From UHGV virus genome UHGV-1493261: a stretch of DNA of 64,000 nucleotides; one strand, given 5' to 3'. Under the pieces are notes generated by a model, which was not told the origin of the DNA, made no database searches, and saw only the letters and a program-made list of their open reading frames with translations. The position numbers and the translations under genes are program-made. Source of the DNA: a virus. Within the stretch, counting starts at the first letter, position 1. Each line of letters starts with the position of its first letter. Shown piece by piece: positions 2 to 18,478 of the stretch.

Positions 2-178
2 CGTCATGCTGCATACAATAACCATATCGGGGGGGATATTAGGATAGAAGATCCGTACGGGAATCCAAGTCAAACAGCTGAAAATGCAGCGTGGGGTAAC
101 AGGGTTACAGGGGAGATAGTTGTCAGCAATCAGATAACCGCTGACTCATTTGGTAATTACAGTGTCGCTGCGATTTAA
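2..178 (+). CDS. 3' end of an upstream gene (partial, frame 2), possibly another tail fibre/tailspike
   Basis: Open frame from window edge to TAA at 176-178 (..GNRVTGEIVVSNQITADSFGNYSVAAI*), followed by a terminator hairpin. Confidence 0.35.
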   Translation, partial: RHAAYNNHIGGDIRIEDPYGNPSQTAENAAWGNRVTGEIVVSNQITADSFGNYSVAAI

Positions 179-360: not shown

Positions 361-389
361 AAAACCCCGCCGAAGCGGGGTTTTCTTTT
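361..389 (+). terminator. Rho-independent terminator-like hairpin
   Basis: CCCCGC-CGAA-GCGGGG stem-loop followed by TTTTCTTTT. Confidence 0.5.
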
Positions 390-684: not shown

Positions 685-2967
685 ATGACCAGAAACGTCG
701 AGAGCATCTTTGGAGCGGTCGTAACAGCTCCGCACCAGATTCCATACACTTACACAGCAACGGGCGGAGAGAAGTTTATCTCCCTCCCTTTCTACCCTAT
801 CACTGGTATAGTCACAATCAACGGTGGTATGCAAGTTCCGTTAGACAACTTTGAAATCGATGGAAATACGTTGAATCTCGGGCGCGCATTATCCAAAGGT
901 GACGTTGTGTTCTGTCTGTTTGATAAGATTCTGTCTCCAGAAGATTATAAAACCGGGATTCGAATCTATAAGTTTCAGGCTATAGGAGGTGAAACCGAGT
1001 TCACTCCTGATTTCACATCTTATGGAGTCCAATCTCTTTATATCGGTGGTGAGTACAAAACACCCGAAATTGAATATTCCTATGACAGCACGACAGGGAA
1101 AGTGTCTTTACAAACTGCGCTGACTGCAGGCGTTTGGGTAGTCGCTGAAATGTCTGTTAAACAACCGAATATCAGTCCGTTGTTTGACCGAAGTATTCAG
1201 GAAATCGCCCGTTCAGCTAACGTAAAAGATTCTGAAGTGATTCTTAGTTCTGATACTACTCAGTCCCTTAATGGTAAGAAGATTATTTACTCTGTTAGTG
1301 AGCAGAAGACTTATGGTTTGCCAGCATTGCCGCCTAATGTGTACATCAGTTCTGTAACCAATGGACAATTAACCTATAACCCTGGTTCTGTTACAGTACC
1401 TTTAGTTGAAGTGCCTAATTCGGCTGCCAAGTTAAAAAGTGAACTTAATGCCAACACTGGTTCTAGCATGGTGCGTACTAGCTCAGGGATTACTGTTGAA
1501 GAATCCCTAGTTAAATTAAAGGATTCCTTCCAATTAGTAACACCTGAGCAGTTTTATGAGCAGTTCCCTGGTGAAACTGATTGGGCAGTGATGATTAATG
1601 CTGCATACGCTTATGCTCGTGGTCATAACAAAAGCGTATTACTTGCTAATGATTATCCAATCGAAAGTACTATTGTGCATATGGATGGACTTAATGTCAT
1701 ATGTACTGGACGTATTATTGCATCCCCAACTGGTACATATACGCATACCACCGCATCAGGTAATGAAGAGAAGGCTGCTTATGTAATTACTACAGAAAAC
1801 GGGGTGTTCAATAATGCTAAATCGTCTTCAATTATCGGCACTCTTACCTTGACTCACACCACTGACAGAGAGCCTACAGGCTATACAGATCCGCACATCA
1901 ATGCTACGGGTGTTGTTGTTACAGACATTGCCAACGTATACATTTCCAATATTCAAACTTTCGGATTCCTTGATGGTGGAATTGACGTCGGTGGTATCTC
2001 AGGCAACGGTTTTGAAATTGTAATCGACAAAAGTTTGTCATGGATTTACGCATGGGAGGATTCAGAGAAGATTGGTTTCCGTTGTAATGTAACCGATTCA
2101 ACGTTCAAAGACGTAGTAACCGTCGCTTACGGGATTGGAATTCACAACGTAAAAGGTGGTGGTAACGTTTATATCAACCCTCATCCGTGGGGGTACCCTC
2201 TGACTTCCACCAATTCATACCCTAATAGGCAGTGTAAAATTCACTTTGTTTTGACTGGTGGTGGTTCTACTTTTATCAGACCTTACGCGGACACTGTGAC
2301 AAAAATTGACAGTTCACTTAGCTCTAGTAGAGCAAACGGTGGTATAGGCTTTTATGTAGAAAACTGGCGTAATAAAATAATCGCAGGTGAGGCATTGCTT
2401 CATTCAGATGACGTAAACACAAACATGTCTCTGGTGTATCTTAAAGGCGATTCCGCCAGAAATGAGATTGAATTTGTAAATGTAACAAACCCGTCTAAGT
2501 TAATAGCGGAAAGAGTTTCGTATGATTCTGGATACCAAAACGCGTTATTTACTAACCTTGTTAGGGTTCCCGAATATATCGCTGGTAATTTAAGCAATCT
2601 TACAGGAAACATATCATTCAATGGTACAGGGGTTACTTCTTCTGGCACGTACAGTTTACGCAGAAGCGGTGAGTACATAGACATTGCTTTGATTATAAAT
2701 GTGACGTCAATCTCCAGTCCATCCGGTTCGTTATCCGTTACCTTGCCGCGGGGACTTGTTTGCCGTTTTGGTCCTACAGTTGAGCCAAGCCAGAATTCCT
2801 GCTTTGGAAATATCAACCAAAGCAACATTGGGGTGGTGGTGGTGTTGAACGGCAGTTCTATAGAGTTCTATTATAAAACGGCAAATGGCACACGAACTGC
2901 AATTAACGCAGCAGGTGTATCAACTGGTGCTCTTGAATTACATATACGTGGAAAGATTAGTAACTAA
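685..2967 (+). CDS. Tailspike protein (beta-helix, depolymerase-like)
   Basis: Long ORF (track start 670; ATG at 685 has a GGGG Shine-Dalgarno and typical spacing from the late motif). N-terminal anchor-like region and Gly/Asn/Thr-rich beta-helix-like repeats; preceded by the late motif. Confidence 0.8.
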   Translation: MTRNVESIFGAVVTAPHQIPYTYTATGGEKFISLPFYPITGIVTINGGMQVPLDNFEIDGNTLNLGRALSKGDVVFCLFDKILSPEDYKTGIRIYKFQAIGGETEFTPDFTSYGVQSLYIGGEYKTPEIEYSYDSTTGKVSLQTALTAGVWVVAEMSVKQPNISPLFDRSIQEIARSANVKDSEVILSSDTTQSLNGKKIIYSVSEQKTYGLPALPPNVYISSVTNGQLTYNPGSVTVPLVEVPNSAAKLKSELNANTGSSMVRTSSGITVEESLVKLKDSFQLVTPEQFYEQFPGETDWAVMINAAYAYARGHNKSVLLANDYPIESTIVHMDGLNVICTGRIIASPTGTYTHTTASGNEEKAAYVITTENGVFNNAKSSSIIGTLTLTHTTDREPTGYTDPHINATGVVVTDIANVYISNIQTFGFLDGGIDVGGISGNGFEIVIDKSLSWIYAWEDSEKIGFRCNVTDSTFKDVVTVAYGIGIHNVKGGGNVYINPHPWGYPLTSTNSYPNRQCKIHFVLTGGGSTFIRPYADTVTKIDSSLSSSRANGGIGFYVENWRNKIIAGEALLHSDDVNTNMSLVYLKGDSARNEIEFVNVTNPSKLIAERVSYDSGYQNALFTNLVRVPEYIAGNLSNLTGNISFNGTGVTSSGTYSLRRSGEYIDIALIINVTSISSPSGSLSVTLPRGLVCRFGPTVEPSQNSCFGNINQSNIGVVVVLNGSSIEFYYKTANGTRTAINAAGVSTGALELHIRGKISN

Positions 2968-2975
2968 AACATCCA

Positions 2976-2994
2976 CCCCTCTTCGGAGGGGTTT
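2976..2994 (+). terminator. Weak terminator/attenuator hairpin between the tailspike genes
   Basis: CCCCTC-TTCG-GAGGGG followed by a short TTT. Confidence 0.35.
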
Positions 2995-3017
2995 ACTAGA
3001 AAAACGAAGAGGTTGTT

Positions 3018-5126
3018 ATGAACGAAATGTTCTCACAAGGTGGTAAGGGTTCAACTGGAATCCTAACCAATAAACAAGCAGTGGCTCGACACTTTGGGGT
3101 TAAACAATCAGAGGTTGTTTACTTCTCAGCGGGTGCTCTGCTTACTGGTTACAAAGTCATCTATGACAAAGTGTCACAGCGTGCTTATTCCTTACCTGCT
3201 GGCATTGGTTCAGGGGTTACTGCTGTAAGCCTTAGTCCTGCTGGGGTATTAGTTCACTCTGCTGGTAATGTAGACTTAGGTGCACTAGCTGTTGCTCGCG
3301 AAGAATACGTAACCCTACCTGGTTCATTTGATACCGGTGTAACAGTTAATGCTAAGAATGAACTGGTTGTTTTTACTGACGGTAAGTACCGATGGGATGG
3401 TGCGCTTCCTAAAGTCGTTTCTGCTGGGTCTACTCCTATATCAACTGGTGGTATTAGTCTTGGCGCATGGGTTAGCGTTGGTGTTGCGTCATTACTAGCA
3501 AGGCTAAAAAGCAATAGCGCTGGTGAGGGCGCCTCCCTTATTACCTTTGAAAATGGCAATTCTGTTGAGAGTCTTTCCGACAGTGATGGTACTAAAAGCA
3601 TAGGTAGTGGTGAGAGAAGTTTGCAGGAACGTAATAATGATATTAAGCATTCTGGGGATTTCCTTACCTTACAAGCTGCGATAGATGCATCGTTACCGAA
3701 AAATGACTTACTTATTTCCCCTGGTGAATATACTGAAAAAGTTACTATTGGTAACGCACAGTTAAAAGGCGTTGGTGGGGCTGTAGTACTAAAAACACCA
3801 GCAGACTTTACAAACACTGTTCAGGTTAATTCATCTATACCCCATTGGCAATTCCGCCATAGTGGTGGTTTTGCTATAGATGGTTCCGGGACAACCGGGA
3901 GCGTAGGCATTAGTTTTGACCCGTCAGACCAATATTCCGGACGTCATAATTTTAGTGATTTATACATCCACAACATCAACAAGGCCATTCAGAAGCCTTC
4001 CGGGAACATCGGTAATACATGGAGAAATATTGGGATATCTACGTGTGATTGGGGTTACTGGGCGCAGTCTGCTTCTGAGATGCACTTAGGCACCGATACC
4101 CTTCAGAACATGCACTTTGATGGCATTAGTACTTACTGCGTTTATATGAACGCTACAGTAGGTGCAGTGCCGGGTACATTCGGAGGTGGTGTAGGCGGTT
4201 GGTGGATTAAGGATAGTGTCATGGAAGCCTCTGGCGGCGGCGGCATCTATCTCAAGAACAAAGCCGGAGACTGTCCTTCTGCTCCGTGCGGTGTATCCAA
4301 TGTATGGATGGAAGCTATCGCTACTACCCCAGCTGTTAATGTAGATGGTGTAGCTCAGAAGCCTCGTGTGCTTAAGCTCATTGACACTAGCATCTTCTTT
4401 GCAGAGTACACGTATCTGAACAACGTAGAGCTTCAGAACTCCAACCTTGTTGCTTATGGATGTCGTGTAGATAACTCAGATGGCCACATGGATATCTCTG
4501 TAGATGCCAGCAGCAGCTTTGTGGCTGAGCAATTGTACCTGAACGGTAGTTCTGGCAAGGATGTAATGGTGCGCTCTGTAGCGGCTCAGACGGGTATGAT
4601 TGGGCAGGGCTGGACACCTAATATGAGTATGCGTGGTTACCTGCCGGAAGGATACATCTATCGAGTATCGGGTAATAAACTCGTAGCTAAACCATTCGAC
4701 AGCGGTACTGCTGTGTTCGGCGGTACGGCAAGCAGTTCTGGCAGCTTGCAGCCACAAGGCCAGTTATCCCAGAACTGCATGTATTTTGAATTCCAAGGTG
4801 CTGCTGAGTTTGAACTTACTGATGCAGCATGGCAGGTAACCTCCGGTAATTGGTACGTATGGGGCATTAGCACTGAGCTGGTTCAGGGAACTCCTGCGAG
4901 CTTCCGTATTGGTGGGGATATCGGTGTGGGTGAAGTCTTTACTAAGCAGGGTCAGTGGGTGAGTACCTTCGGTGTAGCTCAGGCAAGTGCTTCGGGTGCA
5001 GTGAACCTCAGACTAAGTACTGCTGCAGGTGGTGTAGTAATGCGCTTAGCGGACTACTTCGTTGCTGAGTTCACTACTCAGGCAGAGGCTATGCGCTTCG
5101 TGAACAGTAGGCGTGCTCTGCGTTAA
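3018..5126 (+). CDS. Tailspike protein 2
   Basis: 702-aa ORF with an AAGAGG Shine-Dalgarno; N-terminus MNEMFSQGGKGSTGILTNKQAVARHFGVKQSEVVYF resembles the conserved N-terminal anchor of Vi1-like tailspikes (from memory); Gly-rich beta-helix-like body. Confidence 0.8.
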   Translation: MNEMFSQGGKGSTGILTNKQAVARHFGVKQSEVVYFSAGALLTGYKVIYDKVSQRAYSLPAGIGSGVTAVSLSPAGVLVHSAGNVDLGALAVAREEYVTLPGSFDTGVTVNAKNELVVFTDGKYRWDGALPKVVSAGSTPISTGGISLGAWVSVGVASLLARLKSNSAGEGASLITFENGNSVESLSDSDGTKSIGSGERSLQERNNDIKHSGDFLTLQAAIDASLPKNDLLISPGEYTEKVTIGNAQLKGVGGAVVLKTPADFTNTVQVNSSIPHWQFRHSGGFAIDGSGTTGSVGISFDPSDQYSGRHNFSDLYIHNINKAIQKPSGNIGNTWRNIGISTCDWGYWAQSASEMHLGTDTLQNMHFDGISTYCVYMNATVGAVPGTFGGGVGGWWIKDSVMEASGGGGIYLKNKAGDCPSAPCGVSNVWMEAIATTPAVNVDGVAQKPRVLKLIDTSIFFAEYTYLNNVELQNSNLVAYGCRVDNSDGHMDISVDASSSFVAEQLYLNGSSGKDVMVRSVAAQTGMIGQGWTPNMSMRGYLPEGYIYRVSGNKLVAKPFDSGTAVFGGTASSSGSLQPQGQLSQNCMYFEFQGAAEFELTDAAWQVTSGNWYVWGISTELVQGTPASFRIGGDIGVGEVFTKQGQWVSTFGVAQASASGAVNLRLSTAAGGVVMRLADYFVAEFTTQAEAMRFVNSRRALR

Positions 5127-5132
5127 GTGTAA

Positions 5133-5240
5133 TGGCATTACTATGGGTGGTTCAGGTGTGTGAGTAATTACTTTATCGCTGAGTTTACAACACAATCTCA
5201 GGCTTTGGCTTTCATTAACCCAGGGTTACCACTATCATGA
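5133..5240 (+). pseudogene. Vestigial in-frame duplicate of a tailspike 3' end
   Basis: Just after the TAA-GTG-TAA stops the same frame encodes ..SNYFIAEFTTQSQALAFINPGLPLS*, paralogous to the true C-terminus ..ADYFVAEFTTQAEAMRFVNSRRALR* (about 70% nt identity by eye). Confidence 0.45.
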
Positions 5241-5242
5241 AC

Positions 5243-5271
5243 AAAACCCCGCTTCGGCGGGGTTCTTTTTT
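5243..5271 (+). terminator. Rho-independent terminator
   Basis: CCCCGC-TTCG-GCGGGG hairpin followed by TTCTTTTTT. Confidence 0.6.
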
Positions 5272-5645
5272 ATGTACCTCAAACAAACCATTATGTAGAC
5301 TGTTTTAGTCAATTACGACTTAACTAACCTGAGAAAATCCCTATGGGAAATGAACCAGATAATGTAACTCTAGCCAGACTCGAAGAGAGACTCTGGTAGA
5401 ACTCCGAGATTCAAACAATGACATAGGCAATAGACTAAAGAACGTTGAGGCCAATATGCCAACTTGTGTGTTGTCTGGTAACATCCAGTTGGGCGGTGTA
5501 CGTCGATAGTACTCTGAAACTCTGATTTCTTCGGCGTCAGGCATTAACAGTGTCCGCGTGTACCTGGGAGACCTGAACGAGGGCAAATAATTGATGTTAG
5601 GACACGGCTTCTGCTGAGATCACCACAACCACAGAAAGATAATCA

Positions 5646-5734: not shown

Positions 5735-8700
5735 ATGCAAGAAATGAACCTCAACCGCCGCCCATATTGGGATGACTGGAATCCAGAGAAGCGCTTTTCG
5801 CGCATCCTATTCCGTCCGGCACCTATCAAAGTTCAGACGCGTGAACTGAACCAGATGCAGACCATCTTCCAGGATCAACTGGAGAAACTTGGCAACCATC
5901 TGTTCAAAGACGGTTCAATGGTTATCCCCGGCGGCCTGACGATCACCAACACTGCAGTTTCCATGAAGTTCACTCTGGCTGGTGGTAGTGAGTTCACTGA
6001 TCTGGAAGGTATCTCCGAACTCTATGTTCTGGGTAAGGACAACAATGCGAAAGCACGCGTCCTGTCTCTGGAACGTTACCCAGCTGAACCGGATACAATG
6101 TATGCCATCTTAGAGATGACTGAGAGTGGTAGTTCAGACGGTTTCGAAGCTGGCGACAACCTATACTTCAACACCTATGACGTGAACGATAACTTCATCC
6201 GTGTCGGCTATGGTGTGGCCGATACTGTTGGCGGTTCGATTGTCGCTCGCATGACAAAGGGTGTTTATTTCGTTCGTGGTATGTTCCTGGATGTTGAACC
6301 AACCACTTTGATCGTAGACAACGCATCGAACTCTACATCTCACCGCATTGGTTTCAAAGTTACAGAAACAATCGTGACTGAAGCAGAAGATGAAAGTCTG
6401 TTCTCCAATGCTCAGGGTACTCCGAACTCTAAAGCCCCTGGTGCGCATCGCCTGCGCGTCGACCTCGTGTTGTCTCGCTACGATTATGATGAAGAAGTGG
6501 CCGACTTCGTTGAACTGGCGAAGGTGAAAGATGGTCGTATTCAGTCTATGGTCGCCCAGTCAACGTACAACATCCTCGAAGACGCGATGGCTCAGCGCAC
6601 CTATGAGACCAATGGTGACTACAATGTCTCTACTCACCAGATCGACCTGCGTGAACATCTGAAAGAGAACAACAACGGCGGCGTTTACGCTCCGGCTGAA
6701 GGTGGTGATGAAAGCAAATTCGTGGCGGTTATGAAGCCAGGGATATCCTACGTTCGTGGTCGTCGTATCGAAAACCTCGGCGAAGAGCTGGTCACAATTG
6801 ACAAAGCCCGTGACACTGATACCCTGAACAACAACCCTGTGGCTGTTTCGACTGGTAACTATCTGGTGTCCAAGAACTCCAAAGGGGTTCCGGTTGTCTC
6901 CCGTACAATCCGCTACAAGTTCCTGAACGCATCCAGCGATGTACAGGCCACCGCCCTGCTGATTTCGGCAGAGCGCTCCGGTACTGAATTCCGTCTGTAT
7001 ATGCGCGACCTCGTTGTCACCGGGGACATGGGCACGGTGACCAAAGTCGCTTATGAAGAAAGCGGTACAACGATGTTCTCTTGCGAACTGGAGTCCAATC
7101 AGTTCAGTCAGAGTTCGGCGATTGACCTGATCTTCCCTCTTCCTGTATTCGGCGTGAAGACCCTAGCACCTACTGGCACCATCGACATCAACTACACCGT
7201 CCTGCGTTCTAACAAAATCACATTGAACGCGGCAGGCACAGGCTCTATCTCTGCTCCTCTGGGATACAGCTTCAGTCCTGAGTTTTCTTTGTACTCAGCA
7301 GCGAAGGCAGACGGCACCACCGCTCAGTTCGATATCTCTTCGGGGCTGTCCCTGGCTGGTACTCCGGTTGGTTCAGCACTACAGATTTCCCTGGGTGCGG
7401 GGTACGCCAACCAGTCTATCAACCTGTTGGCATTGATGGTCCGCACCACAGCGACGATCAAGACCAAGACTGTTACCGAAGTCACCGAGACTGTGACGTT
7501 TACTGTGGCAGCCAGCGTACAACTTGGGAACCACGACGGATACAAGCTGGTCAGCGTGAAGAACGCAAATGGTGCTGACGTCACCTCGAACTTCACTCTG
7601 GACGGCGGTCAACGCGATGCGGCGTACTACCGTTCTAACCTCATATCGTCTACTGGAGCCATCTCAGGCGTGTTCACAGTGGTGTACCAGTACTTCGCTC
7701 ACAGCTCTGGTGATTTCTTCACAGCGGACTCCTATTCGTCCATCAACTACCCAGACATCCCGAACTATGTTTCATCCAGTTCTGGTACTGTGTATGGGTT
7801 GGCCGACAGTCTGGACTTCCGTCCCAAGATCACCAGCGGAGCGTCTGACACGGACATGGTTCGCCCGAACACCGCGATCATCCTAGATGCAGAGTACTAT
7901 CTGCCTCGTATTGATGCCGTGTATCTGGCAGACAACGGCGTGTTCAACGTTGCTCGCGGTGTGAGTTCCAACAACCTGGCTTCCCCTGCGATCCCAGACA
8001 ACGGCATGCGCCTGTATGAATTAATGATCCCACCATACACAGCCAACATTGACGACATCCAGATTCGCACTATCGACAACCGCCGCTACACGATGCGCGA
8101 TATCGGTAAACTGGAGACCCGTATCTCCAATGTCGAATATTACACCTCACTGTCTCAGCTGGAATCCTCGGCGATGGCGCAACAGGTGTTCGATCCAATT
8201 ACTGGCAACCCGCGCTTCAAGAACGGTATCGCAGCAGACCCGTTCAAAGACTTCCGTCTGATCGACGATTTGTCTGCAGACTGGGTGGGTTCAATCGACA
8301 CTGACAATGGTCGCCTGCGTCCGTTTGTTCAGCAGAACGCGATTGACCTGACGCCAGTCGGTTGGAACAACGTTCAGGATGGTATGGTTGTATGCAACTA
8401 CACCCGTGAGATCTCTGTCCGCCAGGACTATGCAACCACGACCATCAACGTGAACCCGTATGCGGTGTTCAACTGGGAAGGTTTCCTGAAACTGAACCCG
8501 ACTACTGATTACTGGTTTGAGAACTACTATGTTACTCCACGTGTGATCAACGAAACGATCAACACCCGTGGTGCGATCAAAGAAGGTTCTGTGTACGGCA
8601 CATGGCGTACTGTGTCCGTGTCTGAGCGTGTGTGGGAACCGCATGGTGCGGGTGGTGTATGGTGGGGCTACCGCTACCGCACGACTGTGTCCACCCGTGA

Positions 8701-10573
8701 CATTACCACGTACACGTACACCGACAGGACGACTACCACCATGACTGGTGAGCAGATCGTTGAAACGCAGGTAATCCCATACATGCGCAAAACGAACATC
8801 AACTTCGAAGCCACAGGCCTGCGTCCGTTCACTCGTGTGTATCCGTTCTTCTCCGGGCGTGATGTGAGCGCGTACTGTACCCCAAACGGTGGTGTACTGG
8901 GTGGTGCGTTGAACACTGATGCCAACGGTAACATCAAAGGTGTGTTTGCGGTTCCTCAGAACGAGACTATCAAGTTTAACACGGGTGACAACGTCTTCCG
9001 TCTGACTGACAGCCCTGTGGACAGCAAGTCTGCTGATGATACCCTGACCAATGCCGAGGCTGTTCATAAGTCCTTCGGCAAGAAACAGGGCATCCAGAAG
9101 ACTTATGTCAACACCCGCGTCCTGGGATACACTGCGACCAAGTCTACGGAAAACAAAACAGAGACGGTTGAAGTCGCGAAGTGGAAAGATCCTATCGCCC
9201 AGTCCTTCATGGTTGCCACCAATATCGGCGGCGAATATATCGAAGGCATCGAAGTGTTCTTCTCTACCAAGTCTCGCGATATTCCAATCACTTTGGAAAT
9301 CCGTGAGATGAGCAATGGTCTGCCAGCGACGACTGTCGTCACTCGTAAGACTCTGAATCCATCAGAAGTTTCCGTCTCCACAGACTCTTCTGTGCCGACG
9401 ATGTTCAAGTTTGATTATCCTGTGTATCTGCAGGCGCAAACCGAGTTCGCGATTGTTCTCTTGGCCAACACTCAGGACTACAACGCATACATCGCAGAGA
9501 TGGGCAAGAAGAACTTGCTGACCAACGAGTTCATTGCCAAACAGCCGTACACTGGCGTGTTCTTCACATCTTCAAATGGTACGACCTGGACTCCAAACCA
9601 GACTGCCGATATGAAGTTCCGTGTGTATCGCTGTAACTTCTCCGCTGGTTCAAACATCGTGACCTTCGATGCTAAAGTCGGTCCGAAGATCCGCCCTCTG
9701 GGTCTGAACACCGTGAAATGTGTCAACGGTTCTTCAACTGTTACTGTGTACGCTCCGGGGCATGGCCTGACTGCGGGTGAAAGTGTTACTCTGTCTGGGT
9801 TGACGGGTGGTTGCGGTTTCACTCCTGAGCAACTGAACGCTCAACACACTGTGACTGATGCGACGTTCACGACGTTCAAATTCGTTCTGAGTTCCAACGC
9901 CGACTCCGACGGTCAGATTGGTGGTGAAGCGGCTTCTTTCCTAGGCAACTACTTGGTAGACATGTTCTACGCAAGCGTCACCAATTCAGCCCTAGAAGGA
10001 TCTGTATTGAAACTGGAATACCGCTATCGCGATGCGACCTCCAACTCATTCTCTGATTGGGTTGAGTTCGAATCCGATACGGACGTGTCTCTACCGACGG
10101 AAGGTATCTATCGTCAGGTGGGCGACTTCCAGGTTCGTGCAACCATGACTCGCAACGAGAGTAATGTCTACACGGCTCCAATGATTGATGGGGATGATTT
10201 CACTATCATCTTCAACACATACGGTGTGGATCCGTTTGAAGACGTGTTCAGCTACGTGACCAAGGATATCGGATTCGATAACCCTTGCACCACTCTGAAA
10301 CAATACTTCGGCGCGATGCTACCTTCTCAGTCTTCAATGACTGTACAGGTTAAACTGCTGCGCGCAGGTCAGGAGATGGATGACGTGGAATGGGAAACTG
10401 TGACACCGACATCCCCTCTGGTCAATGACGGTTCTACATTCTTCGAATATGAGTATGACAAGACTGTAGCCAGTACCAATCCTTTCGTTGGCCTGAAGAT
10501 CCGCCTGCTGGTCAGAGGCAACCGCATAGCACCGCCGTCATTCAAAGATTTCCGTTTGATTGCTCTGGCATAA
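5735..10573 (+). CDS. Large virion structural protein (1612 aa; tail fibre/baseplate-associated candidate)
   Basis: Uninterrupted 4.8 kb ORF with a GGAG Shine-Dalgarno and an upstream late motif; beta-rich Thr/Ser/Gly composition typical of fibre or baseplate proteins. No family recognised. Confidence 0.75.
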   Translation: MQEMNLNRRPYWDDWNPEKRFSRILFRPAPIKVQTRELNQMQTIFQDQLEKLGNHLFKDGSMVIPGGLTITNTAVSMKFTLAGGSEFTDLEGISELYVLGKDNNAKARVLSLERYPAEPDTMYAILEMTESGSSDGFEAGDNLYFNTYDVNDNFIRVGYGVADTVGGSIVARMTKGVYFVRGMFLDVEPTTLIVDNASNSTSHRIGFKVTETIVTEAEDESLFSNAQGTPNSKAPGAHRLRVDLVLSRYDYDEEVADFVELAKVKDGRIQSMVAQSTYNILEDAMAQRTYETNGDYNVSTHQIDLREHLKENNNGGVYAPAEGGDESKFVAVMKPGISYVRGRRIENLGEELVTIDKARDTDTLNNNPVAVSTGNYLVSKNSKGVPVVSRTIRYKFLNASSDVQATALLISAERSGTEFRLYMRDLVVTGDMGTVTKVAYEESGTTMFSCELESNQFSQSSAIDLIFPLPVFGVKTLAPTGTIDINYTVLRSNKITLNAAGTGSISAPLGYSFSPEFSLYSAAKADGTTAQFDISSGLSLAGTPVGSALQISLGAGYANQSINLLALMVRTTATIKTKTVTEVTETVTFTVAASVQLGNHDGYKLVSVKNANGADVTSNFTLDGGQRDAAYYRSNLISSTGAISGVFTVVYQYFAHSSGDFFTADSYSSINYPDIPNYVSSSSGTVYGLADSLDFRPKITSGASDTDMVRPNTAIILDAEYYLPRIDAVYLADNGVFNVARGVSSNNLASPAIPDNGMRLYELMIPPYTANIDDIQIRTIDNRRYTMRDIGKLETRISNVEYYTSLSQLESSAMAQQVFDPITGNPRFKNGIAADPFKDFRLIDDLSADWVGSIDTDNGRLRPFVQQNAIDLTPVGWNNVQDGMVVCNYTREISVRQDYATTTINVNPYAVFNWEGFLKLNPTTDYWFENYYVTPRVINETINTRGAIKEGSVYGTWRTVSVSERVWEPHGAGGVWWGYRYRTTVSTRDITTYTYTDRTTTTMTGEQIVETQVIPYMRKTNINFEATGLRPFTRVYPFFSGRDVSAYCTPNGGVLGGALNTDANGNIKGVFAVPQNETIKFNTGDNVFRLTDSPVDSKSADDTLTNAEAVHKSFGKKQGIQKTYVNTRVLGYTATKSTENKTETVEVAKWKDPIAQSFMVATNIGGEYIEGIEVFFSTKSRDIPITLEIREMSNGLPATTVVTRKTLNPSEVSVSTDSSVPTMFKFDYPVYLQAQTEFAIVLLANTQDYNAYIAEMGKKNLLTNEFIAKQPYTGVFFTSSNGTTWTPNQTADMKFRVYRCNFSAGSNIVTFDAKVGPKIRPLGLNTVKCVNGSSTVTVYAPGHGLTAGESVTLSGLTGGCGFTPEQLNAQHTVTDATFTTFKFVLSSNADSDGQIGGEAASFLGNYLVDMFYASVTNSALEGSVLKLEYRYRDATSNSFSDWVEFESDTDVSLPTEGIYRQVGDFQVRATMTRNESNVYTAPMIDGDDFTIIFNTYGVDPFEDVFSYVTKDIGFDNPCTTLKQYFGAMLPSQSSMTVQVKLLRAGQEMDDVEWETVTPTSPLVNDGSTFFEYEYDKTVASTNPFVGLKIRLLVRGNRIAPPSFKDFRLIALA

Positions 10574-18449: not shown

Positions 18450-18478
18450 CCCCGCTTCGGCGGGGTTTTAAATTTTTT
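18450..18478 (+). terminator. Rho-independent terminator
   Basis: CCCCGC-TTCG-GCGGGG followed by a T-rich run. Confidence 0.6.

Follow-up and report, generated by a model that had tools for sequence, protein, structure and literature searches.

A decayed tailspike gene end as a probable scar of receptor-binding module replacement in an Agtrevirus-like phage

Receptor-binding module exchange at tailspike loci

It is established that the tsp genes of Ackermannviridae exchange receptor-binding modules at their conserved 5′ region, also with unrelated lytic phages (Sorensen et al. 2021, PMC8432352; PMC10791037; engineering of S117, PMC11414711). The tailspike gene presented here lies in a stretch of virus DNA of 64,000 nucleotides (the window; UHGV virus genome UHGV-1493261) and resembles these exchanges in that it joins a conserved anchor to a foreign distal module that is common to distantly related lytic phages. 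Its left breakpoint, at residue 158, agrees with the end of the structural N-terminus of TSP1 of phage AV101, an anchor that comprises amino acids 1-157 (AV101 study, PMC10791037). Unlike the loci in the three studies mentioned, in which the conserved 5′ region is discussed as the crossover site, the locus in the window also preserves the right-hand breakpoint, together with a piece of what appears to be the displaced allele. In a word search, the words "intergenic" and "remnant" were absent from PMC10791037 and PMC11414711, and "scar" was absent from PMC11414711. The usual evidence for module swapping in Ackermannviridae comes from the conserved 5′ region alone, while at this locus the right breakpoint has been kept within a few bases.

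A second group of relatives consists of the LM33_P1/Golestan/ES17 family. The working gene carries the C-terminal motif of this family, and the remnant downstream of the gene, referred to below as the fossil, corresponds to the gene ends of the LM33_P1/Golestan group over their last 25 residues, stop codon included. The phages of this family are podoviruses or siphoviruses, whereas the host phage of the window is a 150-kb myovirus. Likeness was also found to the gp63.1 locus of phage G7C. An upstream hairpin and the N-terminal region (2976-3319, 89.5 % DNA identity to the 5′ region of gp63.1) are common to both loci, as are the terminator, the intergenic DNA, and the start of gp63 (5256-5392, 92 %). 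Both flanks of the cassette are, thus, common to the G7C and Agtrevirus phage families. Unlike in G7C, the gp63 piece in Agtrevirus is a pseudogene, with a frameshift in AV101 and an additional deletion in the window, and the receptor-binding modules that the flanks enclose are not related to each other.

Podophages of the K1E, K5, K1-5, and SP6 type reportedly carry short leftovers of displaced tail enzymes beside the functional gene, which are said to have been read as the outcome of cassette replacement. These remnants concern another phage family and other enzymes, and they were reportedly interpreted as lost second tail proteins and not as an overwritten allele of the same family. What is new at the present locus is the preserved right-hand breakpoint with its piece of the displaced allele, and evidence that a cassette takes its 3′ flank along when it passes from one phage family to another. 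The locus is a new example of the known swapping of tailspike modules; no new mechanism or function is revealed by it. The coordinates of the features are collected in Table 1.

Table 1 Features of the tailspike locus in the window
Feature	Position	Strand	Basis
Intact tailspike gene, 702 aa, Ackermannviridae TSP1 orthologue, last tsp gene before VriC	3018..5126	+	ORF list, translation, homology
N-terminal anchor module, aa 1-158, probable resident Agtrevirus TSP1-type backbone	3018..3491	+	DNA identity to AV101 and G7C
Receptor-binding block of the ES17 type (tail fibre of Kuravirus), spanning aa 159-702, the stop, and 18 bases of putative donor 3′ flank	3492..5144	+	blastn
Untranslated 3′ bases, GTGTAATGGCATTACTAT, that putatively came along with the ES17-type gene and hold the second in-frame TAA	5127..5144	+	ES17 comparison
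Fossil: last ~35 codons and stop of a LM33_P1/Golestan-type tailspike gene, probably untranslated and decaying	5145..5240	+	tblastn, blastn, gapped Golestan alignment, homologous stop
Net 10-base deletion inside the fossil	5158..5171	+	Codon-by-codon comparison with LM33_P1 and Golestan
Predicted intrinsic (Rho-independent) terminator, AAAACCCCGCTTCGGCGGGGTT and T-run	5243..5272	+	Terminator scan
G7C-type (Gamaleyavirus, N4-like) flank: intergenic DNA and gp63 codons 1-17 (ATG 5344; MGNEPDNVTLARLEERL)	5267..5392	+	DNA and aa identity
Further gp63-like remnant, TLVELRDSNNDIGNRLKNVE, ~gp63 residues 37-56, in another frame	5387..5446	+	G7C gp63 tblastn vs AV101, frame translations

The working tailspike gene

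Judged by its conserved parts, which are 93-97 % identical to AV101, A221, LHE287, and PC3, the window comes from an Aglimvirinae (Agtrevirus-like) phage. Residues 1-217 of the tailspike match TSP1 of CBA120 (4oj5, E 1e-79) and residues 1-155 match gp63.1 of G7C (4qnl, E 1.5e-68), while the Pfam domain Tail_spike_N (PF18668) is found at residues 91-155 (E 3e-22). The gene is the VriC-proximal member of the tsp cluster and adjoins a homologue of VriC (5735..10573; DUF4815; annotation of AV101 and A221). Its N-terminal homology and its position beside VriC indicate that it is the TSP1 orthologue in the nomenclature of the field, and the name "tailspike 2" given to it in a preliminary description of this DNA is best abandoned.

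The region 2901-3491 is 87 % identical to AV101 at the DNA level. From there on, blastn against ES17 gives a single continuous alignment (window 3492-5144, L001 1593-3248) with an identity of 85.1 %. The switch from AV101/LM33-like to ES17-like sequence, therefore, falls at 3491|3492, in the residues "ASL|LARLK". The C-terminal 249 amino acids of the tailspike are 89 % identical to ES17, with a tblastn coverage of 100 %, and the gene stops at a position homologous to the stop of the ES17 gene. At the protein level, the working gene is 72 % identical to the ES17 tail fibre, 60 % to gp17 of LM33_P1, and 62 % to the Golestan tailspike; all four have one C-terminal motif and many invariant columns and constitute one receptor-binding family. 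This family was found in no other Ackermannviridae record. The working tailspike gene is a three-part mosaic with a foreign ES17-type distal block. The exchange of receptor-binding modules that had been proposed for this locus is borne out by this mosaic structure and by the imported debris in the downstream flank. The true donor of the ES17-type block would be an unsampled phage, ES17 as the nearest one being only 85 % identical.

The identity to AV101, which is 84-96 % over 2960-3409, goes down to 64-69 % over 3410-3491. This last stretch encodes a linker that is ~80 % identical to the linkers of hundreds of phage tailspikes, those of LM33_P1, IMEP24, ST4, and Kuttervirus TSP1 among them, and it may mark an older left breakpoint. 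Over 3440-3491, 43 of the 52 bases are identical in LM33_P1 versus 36 of 52 in AV101. The idea that LM33-type DNA is present on both sides of the ES17-type block was considered and rejected: with ~80 % identity to hundreds of tailspikes, the stretch is not assignable to the displaced gene. Within the ES17-type block, 354 bases (4400-4753) are 87.9 % identical to a 24.9-kb record of the Mycolicibacterium phage J1 (MZ417522.1), a record that is probably contaminated or chimeric.

A second tailspike end downstream of the stop codon

The tailspike has the C-terminus ..ADYFVAEFTTQAEAMRFVNSRRALR, which is followed by the stop codon TAA at 5124-5126. A single GTG codon separates this stop from a second in-frame TAA (5130-5132), after which the same frame stays open for 35 codons (5133-5237), reading WHYYGWFRCVSNYFIAEFTTQSQALAFINPGLPLS, up to a TGA at 5238-5240. 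The coordinates and translations of the preliminary description, in which the two TAA codons and the 35 further codons had been pointed out, are correct. When aligned with the whole tailspike, the 35-residue peptide reaches a BLOSUM62 local score of 72, and the best alignment lies exactly on the C-terminus of the tailspike. The scores of shuffled peptides were much lower (mean 26.1, sd 3.8, maximum 47), and none of 2000 shuffles reached 72. The same was true of random 35-codon windows from the same 64 kb (up to 20000 draws, those within 3000-5300 being skipped), for which the maximum was 41. The resemblance of the peptide to the tailspike C-terminus is far above chance, as had been supposed.

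The fact that all 35 codons are open is partly fortuitous, as a 10-base deletion puts the first part of the fossil in frame +1. The ancestral frame has been kept in the last 26 codons only (5163-5240); the bases 5145-5162 are part of the fossil but are in frame +1.

A tblastn search of 50,697 phage records (2.3 Gb) with the 35-residue peptide resulted in matches to 33 records in all at an E limit of 10. The top 25 matches (64-68 % identity, E 2e-3 to 6e-3) all cover the last 25 amino acids, up to the stop codon, of intact tailspike or tail-fibre genes of the LM33_P1 group (Kayfunavirus) and the Golestan group (Kagunavirus). Using blastn, the region 5163-5223 was found to be 81-88 % identical to tailspike 3′ ends (E 3e-5), and these tailspike matches end at or near the 3′ ends of the genes. 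All significant matches of the fossil among the 50,697 records lie at the 3′ termini of intact LM33_P1- and Golestan-group tailspike genes, and the TGA at 5238-5240 is at the position homologous to the stops of these genes. Over its last 26 codons, the fossil is 73 % identical to LM33_P1 at the nucleotide level (17/25 amino acids) and 68 % to Golestan (16/25), versus 55 % to the last 78 bases of the adjacent gene itself (12/25). As it is nearer to the LM33_P1 and Golestan 3′ ends than to the adjacent gene, the fossil most likely stems from the 3′ end, now decayed, of another allele from the family of the adjacent gene, rather than being a copy of the resident end. It had been described as a divergent duplicate of the real C-terminus; the notion of a non-functional tailspike 3′ end holds, all significant matches being at the 3′ ends of intact genes of the same family, while that of a duplicate is contradicted by the identities above.

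Tandem duplication of the 3′ end of the gene, followed by divergence, would account for two C-terminal motifs that share orientation and frame at a distance of ~110 bases, and yet it is highly improbable. Not only is the fossil closer to LM33_P1 and Golestan (68-73 %, and 81-88 % in the core) than to the gene next to it (55 %), it also has their states FIAEF, QALAF, and LS directly before the stop. No DNA repeat between the gene end and the fossil was detected in a direct-repeat scan, which argues against a recent duplication, and the 18 bases in between appear to be 3′ flank of the donor and not duplicated sequence.

The parent of the fossil was not LM33_P1 or Golestan itself. The fossil combines a Y that is found in the ES17 type with the FIAEF, QALAF, and LS-stop states of the LM33 type, which points to a third, unsampled parental lineage (SNYF..INPGLPLS), and its core is at best 88 % identical to any sampled gene. 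A short similarity of the start of the fossil core (5164-5186, SNYFIAEF) to the 3′ end of the upstream tailspike gene that is partly included in the window (153-175, ..GNYSVAAI followed by the stop; 78 % over 23 bases) is probably due to chance.

A function of the stretch, be it as a small ORF, as an addition to the tailspike reached by readthrough or frameshifting, or as a structured RNA, could be suspected from the frame that is open for 35 codons and from a mechanically predicted ORF of 26 amino acids (GTG 5160..5240) in it. We consider this hardly conceivable, given the two in-frame TAA stops that separate the stretch from the tailspike gene. The nearest Shine-Dalgarno-like sequence, AGGT, is only 2 bases upstream of the GTG and is, thus, poorly spaced, residues conserved in the family have been lost, and the small ORF is kept as a separate ORF in none of the matches from phages, viral contigs, metagenomes, or genomes. 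For a conserved functional small ORF, which had been named as the finding that would speak against a fossil, no separate homologue exists in the collections searched. Programmed readthrough or frameshifting would go with a single leaky stop or a slippery site and a conserved extension; there are two TAA codons here, and ES17-type relatives have no extension. As to a structured RNA, no Rfam family comes near its gathering score, the weak matches are all on the terminator hairpin, and the fold energy is unremarkable (z = -1.42). The stretch has the characteristics of a gene remnant, as it is in register with intact gene ends, carries lesions, lacks translation signals and conservation as an ORF, and has a definable breakpoint. 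The fossil has no function of its own and is a record of module replacement.

Boundaries and decay of the fossil

In ES17, the stop codon is followed by GAGTAATGACATTACTAT and then directly by the terminator, while the window instead has 96 extra bases, the length of the fossil. The ES17-type alignment ends at 5144. The gapped alignment with Golestan starts at 5145 with GGGTGGTTCAGGTG versus GGGAGGTTCAGGTG (the "GGSG" codons) and runs to the stop, which places the breakpoint at 5144|5145. At most the 4 bases TACT (5139-5142) at this junction are common to both parental types, so the right-hand join would be illegitimate and not homologous. TACT is weak evidence for a microhomology-mediated join, as 4 bases could be a coincidence. 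Previously, a crossover within a conserved C-terminal linker had been envisaged; the junction actually connects the 18-base 3′ flank to the old gene ~35 codons ahead of its stop. Of the two things that an alignment of related tailspike loci was expected to yield, the breakpoint was found at 5144|5145 and the donor was not, ES17 (85 %) being the closest. The 3′ join of a tailspike swap can, thus, be illegitimate, and the locus may be of use in the engineering of tailspikes, as it indicates the places at which a natural junction does no harm.

The stretch from "GGSG" to "F(I)AEF" measures 14 bases in the window versus 24 in Golestan, as a consequence of which the "GGSG" codons have been pushed into frame +1. 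Further downstream, single-base changes have turned NSR into NPG, by which two otherwise conserved residues were altered. All four full-length family members in the alignment have N, S, and R at these positions, and the two metagenomic relatives with a recorded C-terminus have NTR (P0001) and NSR (P0002), N and R being kept in both. The lesions in the fossil, a frameshifting deletion and the change of NSR to NPG, fit relaxed constraint.

The terminator and the imported right flank

The predicted terminator downstream of the fossil has an 8-bp stem with six GC pairs, a loop of 4 bases, and a T-run, and its hairpin is present in the minimum-energy fold. It is 96 % identical to that of AV101, and the same hairpin, with small differences, is located 3′ of the tail-fibre genes of AV101, G7C, and ES17. 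The loop in the window is TTCG; loop and flank match AV101 and G7C, versus a TTAG loop in ES17. The 16-base core of the terminator, CCCCGCTTCGGCGGGG, occurs three times in exactly the same form in the window, at 365-380 (-), 5247-5262 (+), and 18450-18465 (+), with 0.02 occurrences expected by chance, and might serve as a short, portable stretch of homology when cassettes are shuffled.

The right flank is 92-93 % identical both to the DNA downstream of gp63.1 in G7C and to AV101 at the same locus, and other Gamaleyaviruses match it at the same relative place. The codons 1-17 of gp63 in this flank specify a sequence with 100 % amino acid identity to residues 1-17 of G7C gp63. A 55-base deletion relative to AV101, located between the short direct repeats GAAGAGAGACT and GGAAGAGACT, precedes the second gp63 piece; the gp63 copy of AV101 is longer than that in the window and frameshifted. 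The region 5344-5446 constitutes a second, independent fossil, namely, a pseudogene of an N4-like gp63, which shows that cassettes arrive at the locus together with flanking DNA. On the opposite strand of the gp63 remnants, a mechanically predicted TTG ORF of 81 amino acids (5341-5586, -) has no homology support and is most likely spurious.

The tailspike gene of LM33_P1 is followed by ~40 bases of G7C-type flank (score 44 versus 15.9 ± 2.2 for shuffled sequences). As the fossil runs into a terminator and flank that are AV101-like (92-96 %) and the LM33_P1 gene has part of the same flank, the fossil and the G7C-type flank plausibly made up one ancestral unit in the parent. Phage KKP 3715 was examined as a parent of the fossil and dismissed: its flank matches from the terminator onward, but its tail-fibre gene is unrelated.

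Order of events

The bases 5145-5240 are, with good probability, a recombination scar, the dead remnant of a second tailspike allele of the LM33_P1/Golestan type. As to the order of events, the somewhat favored one is that an LM33-type allele was resident at tsp1 and was replaced by an ES17-type module. The tsp1 gene of the Agtrevirus would then have carried an LM33-type distal module, with an intact C-terminus of the form ..(S)(N/D)YFIAEFTTQSQALAF.N(S)(R)..LS followed by the stop, and directly behind it the terminator and the flank derived from a G7C-like phage. During co-infection, DNA of a phage with an ES17-type module would have recombined into this gene, with the left crossover at the end of the N-terminal anchor (~3491/3492). 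On the right, an illegitimate join would have put 18 bases of the incoming 3′ flank onto a point ~35 codons before the resident stop. As the incoming module brought its own stop codon, 96 bases would have been left stranded in the 3′ untranslated region, ahead of the old terminator, and would later have drifted. Selection for the new receptor-binding module would explain why the product was fixed. We infer the resident allele, the co-infection setting, and the mechanism by microhomology from the homologies, breakpoints, and lesions in the DNA.

A reversed polarity, in which a 96-base piece of the LM33 type was inserted between the 3′ flank of a resident ES17-type gene and the terminator, or a gene that was imported ready-made with its fossil from a donor, is improbable, albeit less so than duplication or function. 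Essentially the same terminator hairpin is present in ES17, G7C, AV101, and the window and could have served as a short right-hand crossover site; the reversed variant would then be an abortive exchange with its right crossover in the shared terminator, and no relative settles the order of events. However, the insertion of 96 useless bases has no selective driver, whereas the replacement of a receptor-binding module has one. Of the only sampled ES17-type genes, those of ES17, myPSH2311, and myPSH1131, none has the fossil. The terminator loop and flank in the window, furthermore, resemble AV101 and G7C and not ES17, and these two observations favor the replacement of a resident LM33-type allele.

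Searches for intermediates bear on the replacement of a resident LM33-type allele as well. Neither an exact search of viral contigs for the same junction nor a search of these contigs with a degenerate fossil pattern gave any match. The patterns FIAEFTTQ and F[IVM]AEFTTQ, used on viral, metagenome, and genome contigs, retrieved only genes of Golestan-like siphophages and chance matches, with no parent of the fossil or ES17-type donor among them. No loci related to the distal module were found. Large protein searches yielded only three distant or partial relatives (P0001-P0003), none of which is nearer to the fossil. There was no match in E. coli genomes and, hence, no prophage source in them. 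As no sampled phage has an intact fossil parent, the same junction, or an LM33-type tsp1 in an Ackermannviridae background, the proposed order is only deduced from the present arrangement.

Receptors of the two alleles

Strains of ST131 are the reported targets of both ES17 and LM33_P1, and an O25b-positive host was used for the isolation of the Golestan-like phage 22664BS2. The receptors named for these relatives are O25b-type O-antigen and, for ES17, heparan-like glycans. As relatives of both alleles target ST131 or come from O25b-positive hosts, the exchanged modules may have had related specificities. The swapping of host-range modules that was proposed at the outset is, in consequence, upheld as a swap of modules, and a change in host range may have gone with it. 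The locus could also help to follow how genes move among the phages of ST131/O25b E. coli.

Further possible imported flanks around the tailspike genes

The intergenic block between tsp1 and VriC of A221 (L007 5217-5580), PC3, and LHE287 recurs in a decayed form (78 %) at 404-609 of the window. The block in these three phages is 87-91 % identical to genes annotated as "hypothetical protein" in the Gamaleyavirus phages Bp4, PD38, pSb-1, and UE-S5a. In Bp4, the matched gene is located ~2 kb from this phage's own member of the tailspike family to which the working gene belongs. The intergenic block of the A221/PC3/LHE287 type points to another imported flank. Tailspike cassettes have, thus, entered Agtrevirus-type myoviruses from N4-like podophages repeatedly, dragging flanking DNA along. 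The locus provides a concrete and datable record of at least two successive imports, flanking DNA from N4-like podophages included.

It is a tentative and rather doubtful extension of these observations that the pair of flanks brackets tailspike modules as landing pads for the swapping of receptor-binding proteins across phage families during co-infection, with remnants adding homology for the next swap. The left pad would consist of the upstream hairpin and the N-terminal anchor, and the right one of the CCCCGCTTCGGCGGGG terminator, the intergenic DNA, and the start of gp63. The families concerned would be Schitoviridae (G7C), Autographiviridae (LM33_P1, right flank only), and Ackermannviridae (AV101 and the window).

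Upstream of the decayed block, a first terminator is located at ~185-205 and is followed by ~150 bases up to a bidirectional hairpin at 361-384; this region (178-360) may be further debris.
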